Virus record (IMG/VR): IMGVR_UViG_3300022217_000003
Coordinates: 111,780 to 175,779 of that record
Direction: 5' to 3' (one strand)
DNA from: a virus
Lineage: Duplodnaviria; Caudoviricetes
Length of the DNA: 64,000 nucleotides
Shown here: piece by piece, positions 23,767 to 27,009 of the stretch
How the letters are laid out: every line of letters starts with the position of its first letter
Numbering within the stretch: position 1 is the first letter of the stretch
Made by a program: the position numbers and the translations under genes
Notes under the pieces: model-generated
Database searches by the model: none
What the model was told of the DNA's origin: nothing
The model's input: only the letters and a program-made list of their open reading frames with translations

Positions 23767-24494
23767 TATTCTATAATAGCATTTGCCTGACCGTCTAACT
23801 CAGGGGCTTCTATTTCATCACCTTCTATGTCTTCTAACCTATCTTCACAGGCAGCCACAATATCGGGATCTTTTACATACATTTCAGCGTAATCTTCTAG
23901 TCTGGATAACGAACTTGTTTCTGCTATTTCATCTAGTATGTTTTGTTTTTGTCCATCAAACTTTTTACCAGGCAAGTCGGCTCTTTTTGCTTTTTTTGCA
24001 GAAGACGAAACTTCGTCGGTGTCAAGCATTTCTGTCTGTAGTTCTAAATCTTTATTGCTGATAAAGCCATCTGGCTTATTGTCTTTGGGTTGCGGAACAA
24101 CTGTTTCTTGTTCAGGGGAAGTACTGGGGGGGGCAGGAGATACAGTATCTTCAGCCTTTTGTGCATCAGGGTTCTCCTGTGGCTGTATCGTAGCATCTTT
24201 AAATATCTCTTTTACTTCTTTTTCAGGAGGTACTTGTTTTATAGTAGCCGCCTCTGCTATTTCTTCGAATGAAGATTTTAATAGCGAGGTATCAACTATT
24301 TTAAGCGTACCTGCTTTAAGGTGTTGTATAATTTCTGGATTTTGCTTTATTCTATCATCACTCATTATGATAGAGACATCCAAGGCCTGCCCTGGTCCAA
24401 TTATGGTATCAGAGTCACGCCTACTTGCTTTTACGGTTGTAAGGATAACCTTTGTAGGATTCCCTTCCTTATTTGTTGGGTTATAAAGTATCAT
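23766..24494 (-). CDS. putative virion/head-completion protein with Pro/Glu-rich linker
   Basis: AGGAG RBS before ATG at 24494 (MILYNPTNKEG); immediately after the major capsid gene. Confidence 0.5.
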   Translation of the reverse strand: MILYNPTNKEGNPTKVILTTVKASRRDSDTIIGPGQALDVSIIMSDDRIKQNPEIIQHLKAGTLKIVDTSLLKSSFEEIAEAATIKQVPPEKEVKEIFKDATIQPQENPDAQKAEDTVSPAPPSTSPEQETVVPQPKDNKPDGFISNKDLELQTEMLDTDEVSSSAKKAKRADLPGKKFDGQKQNILDEIAETSSLSRLEDYAEMYVKDPDIVAACEDRLEDIEGDEIEAPELDGQANAIIE

Positions 24495-24523
24495 ACTGTT
24501 AATTTCTCCTTTTAAGTTAATTA

Positions 24524-24559
24524 ATATCAGGGGAGCAGATAAACTGCCCCCACTGATAT
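24524..24559 (-). terminator. stem-loop downstream of the major capsid gene (terminator or mRNA stabiliser)
   Basis: ATATCAG-T-GGGGGCAG TTTAT CTGCTCCC-CTGATAT on minus strand, just after the MCP stop. Confidence 0.6.
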
Positions 24560-24583: not shown

Positions 24584-25138
24584 TTATGAAGTCGGCAAAT
24601 AAACTGGTTCGCCCTGTGTGTCTGCCAGGAACCACGGGGTATAGGTTGACTTACCTGTAATGGTAATTTTTGCAACCGCTCTTGCGTTGACTATGCCTAC
24701 GCCGATTTCTTCGTATACGACCCAACCTAACCGCAACTTTGCGGGTTTGTCAGCAGGTATTACGTTTACATCTTGACGAATTGGCATAACGCCTACAAAT
24801 TCGGGTTCTGCGAGACAATAGACTGTTCCACGAGGGATCATTTTACTTACAAGTATGTCTGAGGTCCATAAATGACCAACTAACCCTGTTTGTAAAATCT
24901 CTCTCTGTGTAACGAAGTCAAAATCGTTTCTTCCCCAAGTAAGTATGTCTGTGTAATCACCAAAATTCATGATGAACTTACTAGGAACTAAATCCCATTT
25001 ACCTACTTCGGACATCGCCGAAATCATAGAAGTTCTAGCCATGGTATTCGCAACGGTAGTCGTAGGGTTAATAGCAGTAGAAGAAGCAGCAATAGCATTA
25101 AAGATATTCTGATCTTCTATGGCCATTAAATCGATTTT
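24584..25138 (-). CDS. major capsid protein (HK97-like fold), exon 4 of 4
   Basis: KIDLMAIEDQNIF...EILQTGLVGHLW...AEPEFVGVMPIRQD...LGWVVYEEIG; follows the intron-terminal G of GTAACAACACTG. Confidence 0.85.
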   Translation of the reverse strand, partial: KIDLMAIEDQNIFNAIAASSTAINPTTTVANTMARTSMISAMSEVGKWDLVPSKFIMNFGDYTDILTWGRNDFDFVTQREILQTGLVGHLWTSDILVSKMIPRGTVYCLAEPEFVGVMPIRQDVNVIPADKPAKLRLGWVVYEEIGVGIVNARAVAKITITGKSTYTPWFLADTQGEPVYLPTS

Positions 25139-26126
25139 CAGTGTTGTTACTCTCAATTATTCATTGAGGGACAGGACATTTCTGCCTGTCTCCGTATATT
25201 GCTATACGGCTCGGACTATGTCTTCACCTTTCGGTGTTTCTCGTATAGTCTCTGAGGGTGGAAACTTATATTGCATACATTCAGGTATGTGCTTTTTTAT
25301 TATATTCATTAACTTAGGATACTCAGCTTTAGTAATCCTAAATTCATAAACTGTCTTAGAAGAATAATATACCTTTACACTAAGGTCAAATTTATTTTTC
25401 AAAACACCCTGAATAATTTTAACTACACCTTTATTGAGATGTTTCCCAACGTATAGCCTTATACCAACTATTTCTTTTTTATGATTCATGAGATAACACC
25501 CATCGTCCATTATCCAGATCGCCAAACCTAATGGAGTAAGCCTTTCTAACGCTTTCTTCTTAAGTATTTTATTCCCAGTTCCATGGTAATTTTTATAAAA
25601 CAACCATCGGTAATAATTAAAGTCTGGATGAAACTTTGTGGCATAACGATAACTTTCAAACCCATTTTTATCAATTTGTTTCCTAATGGGGTTTGAAAAC
25701 ATACCAAAAATATCACTCTTCCATTTTAAGTAGCCTAATTGTTTTGCACAATGTGTCATAAACAAGCTACTGCAATATTTGTTAGACCTGATACTTGAAT
25801 CGCCAAGCATCATTCCTATAACTGCATCTTTTTGAATACTGTCCAAATGATATTTTTTTATTTCCCTTAACTGAGTGTGAAGTATGGGTATACTCCACTT
25901 TTTCATTTTTTTGGAAATGGTATTGTTATTACAATTATACACTTTTGCAATCTCACGTATAGTTAGCATCTCCGAATGATACAACTTTTCTAATTTTTCT
26001 TTTGTTATGTCTTTAATATTCAACATAGCAAGTTTCCTTTCCTGCAAATTGTCCGCAGTGCTTTCTCTTAAAAAACACATCTTACCGGAGTTCCTTGCAT
26101 ATAGAGAAATTGAGAACCAATTTCTT
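25139..26126 (-). mobile_element. group I intron 3 of the MCP gene (988 nt), ORF-containing
   Basis: P1 AGAGCU/GGUUCU with U.G at the 5' splice site; P TATGCAAGGAA, Q AATTTGCAGG, R CTCAGAGACTA, S GAAGACATAGTCC; terminal G; removal restores RAQQRA-KIDLMA. Confidence 0.88.
25202..26026 (-). CDS. intron-encoded LAGLIDADG homing endonuclease with N-terminal HTH
   Basis: IGMMLGDSS and LAIWIMDDG motifs; LTIREIAKVYNC HTH; 3' end runs through the intron R/S core; ATG at 26026 after AAGGA. Confidence 0.88.
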   Translation of the reverse strand: MLNIKDITKEKLEKLYHSEMLTIREIAKVYNCNNNTISKKMKKWSIPILHTQLREIKKYHLDSIQKDAVIGMMLGDSSIRSNKYCSSLFMTHCAKQLGYLKWKSDIFGMFSNPIRKQIDKNGFESYRYATKFHPDFNYYRWLFYKNYHGTGNKILKKKALERLTPLGLAIWIMDDGCYLMNHKKEIVGIRLYVGKHLNKGVVKIIQGVLKNKFDLSVKVYYSSKTVYEFRITKAEYPKLMNIIKKHIPECMQYKFPPSETIRETPKGEDIVRAV

Positions 26127-26377
26127 AGCTCTTTGCTGAGCTCTATCAATCAAATTAAACCTACGAGCTTTCACCTGCGAAAACCTAACTTGAGGATAAG
26201 ACCCGATTTCAAAAAGGGGAACGGTAATCCTCTCACCTTCCTGGATCGTGTCCGGAATTCTTCCTCTCTTGCTCACAGTAACGGCTGGAGATTTTATATC
26301 TTTATCATAAACCGGTAAAGCACCCTGTGGTAATGGGTCCGGTACAATAAGTTTTCTTCCAACCGACTGATAATCTA
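26127..26377 (-). CDS. major capsid protein, exon 3 of 4
   Basis: (L)DYQSVGRKLIVPDPLPQGALPVYDKD...VPLFEIGSYP...RRFNLIDRAQQRA. Confidence 0.85.
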
Positions 26378-26649
26378 CAATTTTGTTACTCACCCTATCT
26401 TGAAGTCACAATTTGTTACTTCAAGTCCAAGGTGGGACAGATCATTTCTGCCTGCCTCTACATATTTCTATGCAGTTCGGACTGTATCATCTTTAAACTA
26501 TTTTCAAAGAACAAAGCCCCCTTTGCAGTCTCTGGGGAGAATTCGTGTTCGCTATTTGCGAATTGAGAACACTCCTGCTGATTGTCCGTCCTCATAAAAC
26601 GGGTGTTCCAGCATACACCGGGGGTTTTAATGGCGCAAGATTATGGTTC
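26378..26649 (-). mobile_element. group I intron 2 of the MCP gene (272 nt), ORF-less
   Basis: P1 AUGGCGU/GCGCCAU with U.G; P TATGCTGGAA, Q AATCAGCAGG, R CAGAGACTG, S GATGATACAGTCC; ends GTAACAAAATTG. Confidence 0.88.
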
Positions 26650-26662
26650 ACGCCATCCTAAT
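26650..26662 (-). CDS. major capsid protein, 13-nt micro-exon 2 (ATTAGGATGGCGT)
   Basis: Joining exons gives in-frame MANP-IRMA-L-DYQSVGRK; flanked by intron 1 terminal G and intron 2 P1. Confidence 0.82.
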
Positions 26663-26907
26663 CTTTATTGTTACTCCTATTATTGGATATTAATAGGGGA
26701 ACGGTCATTTCTGCCGTTCTCTACACATCACTGTGTAGAACAGACTATATCTTCACCCTTTCGACATAAGGGGTTCTGCGTGTTAGTCGTTGAGGGGTCA
26801 ATTAATAATGACTTCCCTGCTGATAATCTAAAATTCAATTTAGACTTCCCAGCATACAGCAGAATCTTTTTAACTATCAGTTACCCAATAGCTTCCCAAT
26901 AGATATT
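26663..26907 (-). mobile_element. group I intron 1 of the MCP gene (245 nt), ORF-less
   Basis: P1 CCUAAUA/UAUUGGG with U.G; P TATGCTGGGAA, Q TATCAGCAGG, R CTCAACGACTA, S GAAGATATAGTCT; ends GTAACAATAAAG. Confidence 0.88.
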
Positions 26908-27009
26908 AGGATTAGCCATTGAAGCGGCAAGAGCGAGTCTTCCGTCCTCTGAAGAAAGAGCAGCCTCTATAAGAGAATTTCTTTCTGCGGGAGTTATAAC
27001 ATCACTCAT
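26908..27009 (-). CDS. major capsid protein, exon 1 of 4 (spliced product 306 aa)
   Basis: AAGGAG RBS, MSDVITPAERNSLIEAALSSEDGRLALAASMANP; exons 102+13+251+555 = 921 nt, an uninterrupted frame. Confidence 0.85.

Follow-up and report, generated by a model that had tools for sequence, protein, structure and literature searches.

In mycobacteriophage LittleE, an intron interrupts the major capsid gene, and reverse transcription-PCR together with N-terminal protein sequencing showed that it is spliced, with an efficiency judged to be 'extremely efficient' (Pope et al. 2013; PMC3706429); a capsid-gene intron of the lactococcal phage Tuc2009 is among the examples cited in that paper. The part of Yutin et al. 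(2021; PMC7886860; also PMC10136315) that deals with the crAss-like Zeta group describes the major capsid protein gene of cMAG OLRF01000054 as broken into five; of the four segments in between, three code for domains typical of group I introns. Three similar group I introns in one gene of phage Twort, with exon skipping, are summarised in a section of PMC3073962, and group I introns of ~206 nt on average, numbering 18.5 per genome and about half confirmed by metatranscriptome reads, are given for the Jug jumbo gut phages in the sections of PMC12880540 available to us. Most of what our search for micro-exons next to group I introns yielded concerns the spliceosome; the single fungal paper deals with a 1-nt 'mini-exon' that lies between group II introns. 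Neither introns in capsid genes nor introns at short distances from each other are treated in an L. plantarum phage paper or a Bastillevirinae intron survey. Here we describe a minus-strand major capsid gene (positions 27009–24584) in a 64,000-bp window, bases 111780–175779 of the IMG/VR virus record IMGVR_UViG_3300022217_000003 (175,779 bp, estimated to be 77% complete); all positions below are those of the window. With a probability of roughly 0.87, the locus is a single capsid gene that has received three group I introns, selfish mobile elements of a lineage common in uncultured phages. This reading is based on sequence, structure, covariation, restoration of a conserved protein and comparative distribution, from which we infer splicing itself.

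The frame opening with the ATG at 27009 was found to be broken three times. Joining four minus-strand exons restored it: exon 1 (26908–27009, 102 nt), which codes for residues 1–34, ends in ...AAUCCU and is collinear with homologues; the micro-exon, exon 2 (26650–26662, 13 nt, AUUAGGAUGGCGU), which codes for I-R-M-A and the first base of L39; exon 3 (26127–26377, 251 nt), which extends from the last two bases of codon 39 to residue 122 and ends in ...AGAGCU; and exon 4 (24584–25138, 555 nt including the stop), which codes for residues 123–306. When these were joined in silico at AAUCCU^AUUAGG, GGCGU^UAGAUU and AGAGCU^AAAAUC (^, junction), a 921-nt frame in phase 0 was obtained with a single terminal stop, specifying a protein of 306 aa; the exons contained no stop, frameshift or gap, and all conserved residues were kept. 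The exon and intron boundaries proposed in the initial annotation were thus reproduced at every coordinate, as were the length of the frame and that of its product.

Profile searches revealed that exon 3 corresponds to positions 73–157 of phrog_2522 (major head protein; E 2.8e-18) and exon 4 to positions 160–316 (E 1e-42), so that the two pieces abut on the profile. Exon 4 also matched residues 122–279 of gp27, the capsid protein of Bacillus phage G whose structure has been solved (PDB 6WKK; E 6.5e-59), the exons being contiguous on this protein as well as on phrog_2522, and identity to the annotated major head protein of Bacillus phage G was 56%. The separate exons had no match in Pfam-A; their homologues carry PF25209. 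Hundreds of unbroken homologues of 280–315 aa were present in the protein database, and in alignments of the spliced product with 29 and then 114 full-length homologues no gaps were introduced over residues 30–45 and 116–128. In both alignments A-N-P-I-R-x-x-L-D-Y, which lies around and within the micro-exon, was among the best-conserved residues of the family. The five residues IRMA-L that had been placed between NP and DYQ are therefore required by the homologues, N-P-I-R and L-D-Y being conserved without gaps in the set of 114. The gene is present in a single copy, a second capsid gene having been sought in the genome and ruled out. Together with the phrog_2522, PDB 6WKK and phage G matches, which bear out the identity assigned to the gene at the outset, this identifies it by homology as the phage's only major capsid gene, of the HK97 type and similar to Bacillus phage G gp27 (phrog_2522/PF25209).

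All three intervening sequences, likewise on the minus strand, displayed the organization of a group I intron. Intron 1 (26663–26907, 245 nt) has no open reading frame (ORF) and contains P1, P2, P3–P9, P9.1 and P9.2; intron 2 (26378–26649, 272 nt) possesses neither an ORF nor P2; and intron 3 (25139–26126, 988 nt), also without P2, holds an endonuclease ORF in its P6 loop. A U·G pair at the 5′ splice site and a 3′-terminal G (at 26663, 26378 and 25139, respectively) were found in all three. In intron 1, the guide at 26894–26900 supplies GGGA, which pairs with exon UCCU (4 bp on the exon side, with the U·G pair at the splice site), and AUU, which pairs with the first AAU of the intron, giving a P1 of 7 bp in total. 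The guide of intron 2 (26629–26636) forms an 8-bp P1 with the micro-exon, GAUGGCGU/GCGCCAUU, and that of intron 3 (GGUUCU, 26113–26118) a 6-bp P1 with exon AGAGCU. The helices P3–P9 and the two additional 3′ hairpins, P9.1 and P9.2, were located in each intron at homologous positions with complementary strands. The P3 helices are unrelated in sequence yet complementary (UUCUGC/GCAGAA, CCCCC/GGGGG and UUUCUC/GAGAAA), and P6 of intron 3 is GGAAAC/GUUUCC. RNAalifold applied to the three 3′ halves predicted 30 pairs, 12 of them with compensatory changes. Across the 142 members of the lineage described below, 28 of the 30 pairs covaried, and 94.3% of the pair cells were standard as compared with 66.7% after shuffling and 22–43% with slid partners, all in an alignment that was fitted to the model.

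RF00028, the Rfam family of group I introns with a gathering score of 50 bits, matched intron 1 above that score (82.8 bits, E 1.5e-19 over the whole window). In a permissive scan, introns 2 and 3 reached 42.1 and 39.4 bits, below it, with E values of 1e-8 and 7e-8 for the 2.8-kb region and of 1.5e-10 and 9.8e-10 genome-wide; the three introns were the only matches of the model in the 175,779-bp genome. The modest scores of introns 2 and 3 are attributable to the missing P2 in both and to the 0.8-kb ORF in the P6 loop of intron 3. A model of the shared 3′ domain, designated R1, was built from these introns themselves; it scored introns 2 and 3 at 122.3 and 128.4 bits, values that refer to the sequences on which it was built, and independent members in other contigs at 73–103 bits. 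A scan of the genome with R1 yielded no further intron copy beyond the three in the capsid gene. Capsid-frame stops were encountered 8, 0 (GCG U^GA) and 14 codons past the 5′ splice sites of introns 1, 2 and 3, respectively; early in-frame stops of this kind are the usual arrangement in phage introns and keep ribosomes off the ribozyme core. The covariance models, helices and covariation agree with the earlier recognition of three group I introns from the U·G pair in P1, the core motifs and the terminal G, and the check that had been proposed for it, a scan with group I covariance models, returned all three, introns 2 and 3 below the gathering score. By sequence and structure the intervening sequences are genuine group I introns, and they are predicted to be self-splicing here. 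A group II origin was considered and rejected, as no group II family appeared in the Rfam scans of the window and the intron ORF has no reverse transcriptase domain.

It was also noticed that the last hairpin of intron 2 (26391–26434) carries in its loop GAAGUAACAAAUUG, a near copy of the true 3′ end GAGUAACAAAAUUG that precedes the actual 3′ splice site by ~33 nt. Splicing at GAAGUAACAAAUUG would bring an in-frame TAG into the message; the look-alike either is left over from a duplication or acts as a cryptic splice site. Intron 1 (26884–26902) holds two copies of the guide motif CUAUUGGG at a distance of 11 nt, one being the P1 guide and the other the 5′ strand of P2; an alternative P1 that uses the second copy of CUAUUGGG looks possible.

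Reading frame and alignment together indicate that the 13-nt micro-exon is real and is needed both for the frame and for the conserved IRxxL. Bases 1 and 3–6 of the micro-exon pair in register with the bases 5′ of the intron 1 guide (to 26903), forming a P10 with five of six positions paired, whereas only two of the six would pair if exon 3 were used instead; the better fit to the micro-exon disfavours skipping. Bases 6–13 constitute the entire exon strand of the 8-bp P1 of intron 2, the terminal G·U included. The micro-exon had been suggested to serve as the 3′ exon of intron 1 and also to contribute 7 nt to P1 of intron 2; the dual role was confirmed, with a count of 8 nt in place of 7. Since the P10 of intron 1 and the P1 of intron 2 overlap by one base only, pairing imposes no order of splicing on the two introns. 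Intron 2 itself has a 7-bp P10, in which the loop AUAAUCU 5′ of the guide pairs with bases 2–8 of exon 3 (AGAUUAU/AUAAUCU). When the micro-exon was left out in silico, ...ANP was followed at once by TAG, in keeping with the earlier statement that loss of the 13 nt breaks the frame; because of this immediate stop, a single composite intron (26907–26378) was rejected.

The ORF in intron 3 (25202–26026, minus strand; 274 aa) is stop-free, starts with its own ATG in a frame other than that of the capsid gene and is preceded by AAGGAAA. Its product matched PF03161 (LAGLIDADG_2) over profile positions 3–168 of 168 (E 1.8e-27; 96.8 bits against a cut-off of 25) as well as phrog_11023 (E 1.3e-20), and the motifs ...MMLGDSSI... 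and ...IWIMDDGCY... were present in the translation. No other copy of the LAGLIDADG gene was found in the genome. The last ~60 nt of the ORF run across the 3′ strand of P6, P7, P3′, P8 and J8/7 into P9, an overlap with the ribozyme core that corresponds to the 'core creep' known from other mobile introns according to the relevant section of PMC3073962. An intact LAGLIDADG_2 ORF, 50% identical (E 9e-83), occupies the same capsid site in the contig designated L043, and intron-less alleles of the L002 and L041 type read ...CAACGUGCA^AAACUC... at this site. By homology the ORF is that of an intact LAGLIDADG homing endonuclease, for which site-specific cleavage of the intron-less allele is predicted.

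The distribution among relatives was found to be sporadic. In the first search, 39 of 41 related capsid loci were unbroken, including the closest ones at 78% and 73% identity. In the residue numbering of the present capsid protein, the introns of other contigs are located inside codon 44 and between codons 118 and 119 (L001), between 53 and 54 (L003), at 122/123, which is exactly the site of intron 3, and near 171 (L043), inside codon 54 (L076), at 30/31 and 43/44 (L089), near 195 (L107), inside codon 31 (L114), and inside codon 31, near 118 and near 231 (L148); for L001, the splice-site solution collinear with homologues was kept. The lineage, which R1 recognised in the split capsid genes of these relatives, uses ~13 distinct insertion sites in the capsid gene, several of them just 1–15 nt apart. 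Most lie in conserved stretches (local conservation 0.89–0.97 versus a mean of 0.76), the exception being the site near 171, with a value of 0.83 that is about the median. In L089, the two introns are separated by a 39-nt exon in the N-terminal region (M-T-E-P-L-R-T-R-L-D-Y-V-G) with a 7-bp P1. RF00028 found no match in the split capsid gene of L001 and scored L003 at 32.8 bits; in general, R1 gave 73–144 bits where Rfam gave 33–83 or nothing.

The closest intron-less alleles (L002:5629–6558 and L041:5635–6555) have C, not U, at the splice positions of introns 1 and 2 (AAC CCC^AUC; ACU C^UG or C^UC), and several further synonymous differences fall on guide-paired bases. These differences suggest that the exons at the present locus are co-adapted to the guides of their introns. 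The hexamer AGAGCT occurs twice in exon 3, 12 nt apart (GATAGAGCT CAG CAA AGAGCT; 26127–26147), with intron 3 inserted after the second copy. The second intron of L001 (flank L001:4882–4890) follows the place of the first copy, and this same hexamer is the partner of its guide, GGCUCU; the arrangement could result from reverse splicing, directed by the guide, into a similar site close by.

Both introns of L001 (3438–4667 and 4891–5976) carry an ORF of the DUF7487 family (332 and 280 aa, respectively) in the place of the LAGLIDADG ORF, and DUF7487 may be an uncharacterised family of intron-borne nucleases. The genes neighbouring the L001 capsid gene hold inteins (Intein_splicing and LAGLIDADG_3). 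In the contig of another relative (P0110; ENA ERZ27256887), the gene of a 575-aa group II-type reverse transcriptase (RVT_N, GIIM, HNH) immediately precedes a partial capsid sequence beginning with residue 104, with a Cas12f1-like TNB-domain gene nearby; the phage G-like capsid family may therefore host group II introns too.

Beyond capsid genes of this family, a degenerate pattern of the J8/7-P7-P9-P9.1 core was present in more than 113 viral contigs among the matches listed, and short core matches were also obtained in isolated Alteromonas, Vibrio, Pectobacterium and crAss-like phages. With R1, 142 introns were detected in 83 stretches searched, 29 of which had two to eight copies. In several contigs the 3′ ends of successive introns were just 232–315 nt apart. 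A simple P1 search, which recovered the 13-nt exon and the 39-nt exon of L089 as controls, proposed other candidate inter-intron exons of ~10–45 nt; the shortest confirmed among the loci compared here is that of 13 nt. Within the 3′ domain, the three introns of the present gene share 62–68% mutual identity and rank 23–74 of 141 as neighbours of one another, in a short alignment with weak tree support. As they are not one another's nearest relatives, separate invasions are favoured over duplication in place, and a recent duplication of one intron within the gene was rejected on these values.

One contig, L072 (1100–5050, minus strand), had eight introns of the lineage in ~4 kb, two of which contain endonuclease ORFs of the Vsr/DUF559 type. 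Its largest exon piece had a weak match to PF17236 (SU10 major capsid; E 7e-4, below the cut-off), and the host gene may be an SU10-type capsid gene. The heuristic P1 search proposed candidate inter-intron exons of ~10–11, 25 and 30 nt in this contig.

Taken together, invasion by three mobile introns would account for the locus as follows. The gene would be transcribed as one pre-mRNA, in which each intron would fold its own ribozyme core and excise itself by two guanosine-initiated transesterifications, and ligation of the four exons would give a message of 921 nt that specifies a normal capsid protein of 306 aa. The 13 nt between introns 1 and 2 would offer barely sufficient space for both: the first six bases of the micro-exon, docked on the intron 1 guide, would place the 3′ splice site of that intron (P10), and bases 6–13, docked on the intron 2 guide, would set the 5′ splice site of the next (P1); splicing would likely proceed 5′ to 3′, following the order of transcription. 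The stops 0–14 codons past the 5′ splice sites would keep ribosomes off the ribozyme cores. The LAGLIDADG endonuclease would spread intron 3 to empty alleles, and the ORF-less introns 1 and 2, located ~250–265 exon bases upstream of intron 3, could be co-converted with it. Several points weigh against this account. For introns 2 and 3, the Rfam model does not reach its gathering score (42.1 and 39.4 versus 50 bits), and the predicted P10 of intron 3 is weak, pairing just at positions 1–2 and 5–6. The look-alike of the 3′ end in intron 2 and the doubled guide motif in intron 1 could misdirect splicing. In addition, the contig is metagenomic and 77% complete, so that a defective phage is conceivable, and splicing at this locus is a prediction from sequence.

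The low Rfam scores, the incomplete contig and the nature of the splicing evidence are also what would be expected of a decayed gene, in which at least one intron no longer splices or needs a trans-acting factor, the phage being defective or the capsid gene a pseudogene. We regard this as very unlikely: the exons are intact with all conserved residues kept, the core helices are all intact with compensatory changes, the endonuclease ORF is intact and no other capsid gene is present in the genome to compensate, whereas the scores are explained by the lost P2 and the ORF in the P6 loop and rise to 122 and 128 bits with the lineage model. Still less credible, to the point of being negligible, is the view that the intervening sequences are not introns but inteins, programmed frameshifts or a chimera of assembly. 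Protein splicing does occur in this phage group, as the inteins next to the L001 capsid gene indicate; however, the capsid frame meets a stop within 0–14 codons of each intervening sequence, the group I covariance models match all three, and the same architecture recurs in independent assemblies. The ORF in intron 3, with its own start in another frame, matches LAGLIDADG_2 only and has no Hint/intein domain; inteins were rejected on this ground and on that of the in-frame stops after each junction.

A further alternative is a regulatory role. The initial annotation had proposed that the dependence of capsid synthesis on three splicing events, with possible ordered splicing or skipping, could gate capsid production, and it is conceivable that the introns, and especially the tandem pair, are maintained since the level or timing of capsid output is set by the order of splicing or by skipping of the micro-exon. 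Skipping would work as an on/off switch, with TAG straight after ...ANP; the skipping of exons flanked by similar introns has been reported for Twort, as cited in PMC3073962; and with the guides of introns 1 and 2 both paired within the same 13 nt and a one-base overlap, simultaneous docking may be hindered. Nevertheless, such a control device has little chance of being the correct explanation. The introns are absent from 39 of the 41 related loci, the closest relatives included, and relatives that have introns carry them at different positions, a pattern more in line with parasitism than with conservation of a control device; the P10 of intron 1 fits the micro-exon at five of six positions and exon 3 at two, which disfavours skipping; and the three introns are not mutual closest relatives, suggesting separate invasions. 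The proposed role finds no support and is made unlikely by the sporadic, site-variable occurrence of introns of a mobile lineage, one with a homing endonuclease, on which pairing imposes no splicing order. An extension of the mobile-intron reading is that phage G-like capsid genes have a hotspot in their conserved 5′ third, colonised by one lineage via guide-directed reverse splicing, beyond endonuclease homing alone, and that the 13-nt micro-exon is near the physical minimum for sharing between P10 and P1, forcing sequential 5′-to-3′ splicing. It is suggested by the ~13 sites, several of them 1–15 nt apart, and by intron 3 and the L001 intron being inserted 12 nt apart, each after AGAGCU; we consider this extension speculative and rather unlikely.

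Downstream of the capsid gene, a G+C-rich hairpin (24492–24559, minus strand) directly follows the stop and is succeeded by AAGGAG and the next ATG. It gave a sub-threshold match to the caiA small RNA family (27.8 bits, E 0.079) and is best read, for simplicity, as a terminator or attenuator together with the ribosome-binding site of the next gene.

Gene callers see only fragments of the capsid gene, and the database entry is a 180-aa piece; phage classification and abundance estimates that use capsid genes will consequently overlook genes like this one or count them in shortened form. With a covariance model specific to the lineage, they are recovered far better than with the general Rfam model. 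The locus also joins a growing number of cases indicating that, in large uncultured phages, even a heavy load of introns is tolerated by the late genes with the highest expression.

Compared with the systems described above, the locus is most similar to that of LittleE, in which a probable group I intron (exon-end U, intron-end G) likewise interrupts an HK97-type capsid gene, is associated with a LAGLIDADG-related ORF and is missing from close relatives. LittleE differs in having one intron, no micro-exon, its endonuclease gene on the opposite strand, and an unrelated capsid family and host group; in addition, splicing was proven by experiment there, whereas we infer it here. As far as it is described in the section on the Zeta group, OLRF01000054 is alike in that the capsid gene of an uncultured phage is in several pieces with three intron-like segments, but those introns were recognised via endonuclease domains, the section gives no account of ribozyme structure, exact junctions or a micro-exon, and the capsid family is crAss-like, not phage G-like. 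In Twort, as summarised, a single gene likewise harbours three group I introns related to one another, and short internal exons raise the possibility of skipping in both; skipping was seen experimentally in Twort, whereas here it would lead to an immediate stop and is disfavoured by P10 pairing. The Jug phages are likewise large uncultured phages in which essential genes are split by many small group I introns, reported for terL, nrdD and DNA polymerase in the sections available, which mention no intron in a capsid gene, as opposed to the capsid gene only in the present genome. With published precedents (PMC3706429, PMC7886860), introns in the capsid gene are not the exception that they had first been taken to be. 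Capsid-gene introns are already known in phages, and the locus is a clean further example that involves no new mechanism and settles no open question. What is distinctive is the 13-nt exon common to the guide helices of two ribozymes, a natural example of tight ribozyme packing in which one exon provides P10 to one intron and the whole exon side of P1 to the next.

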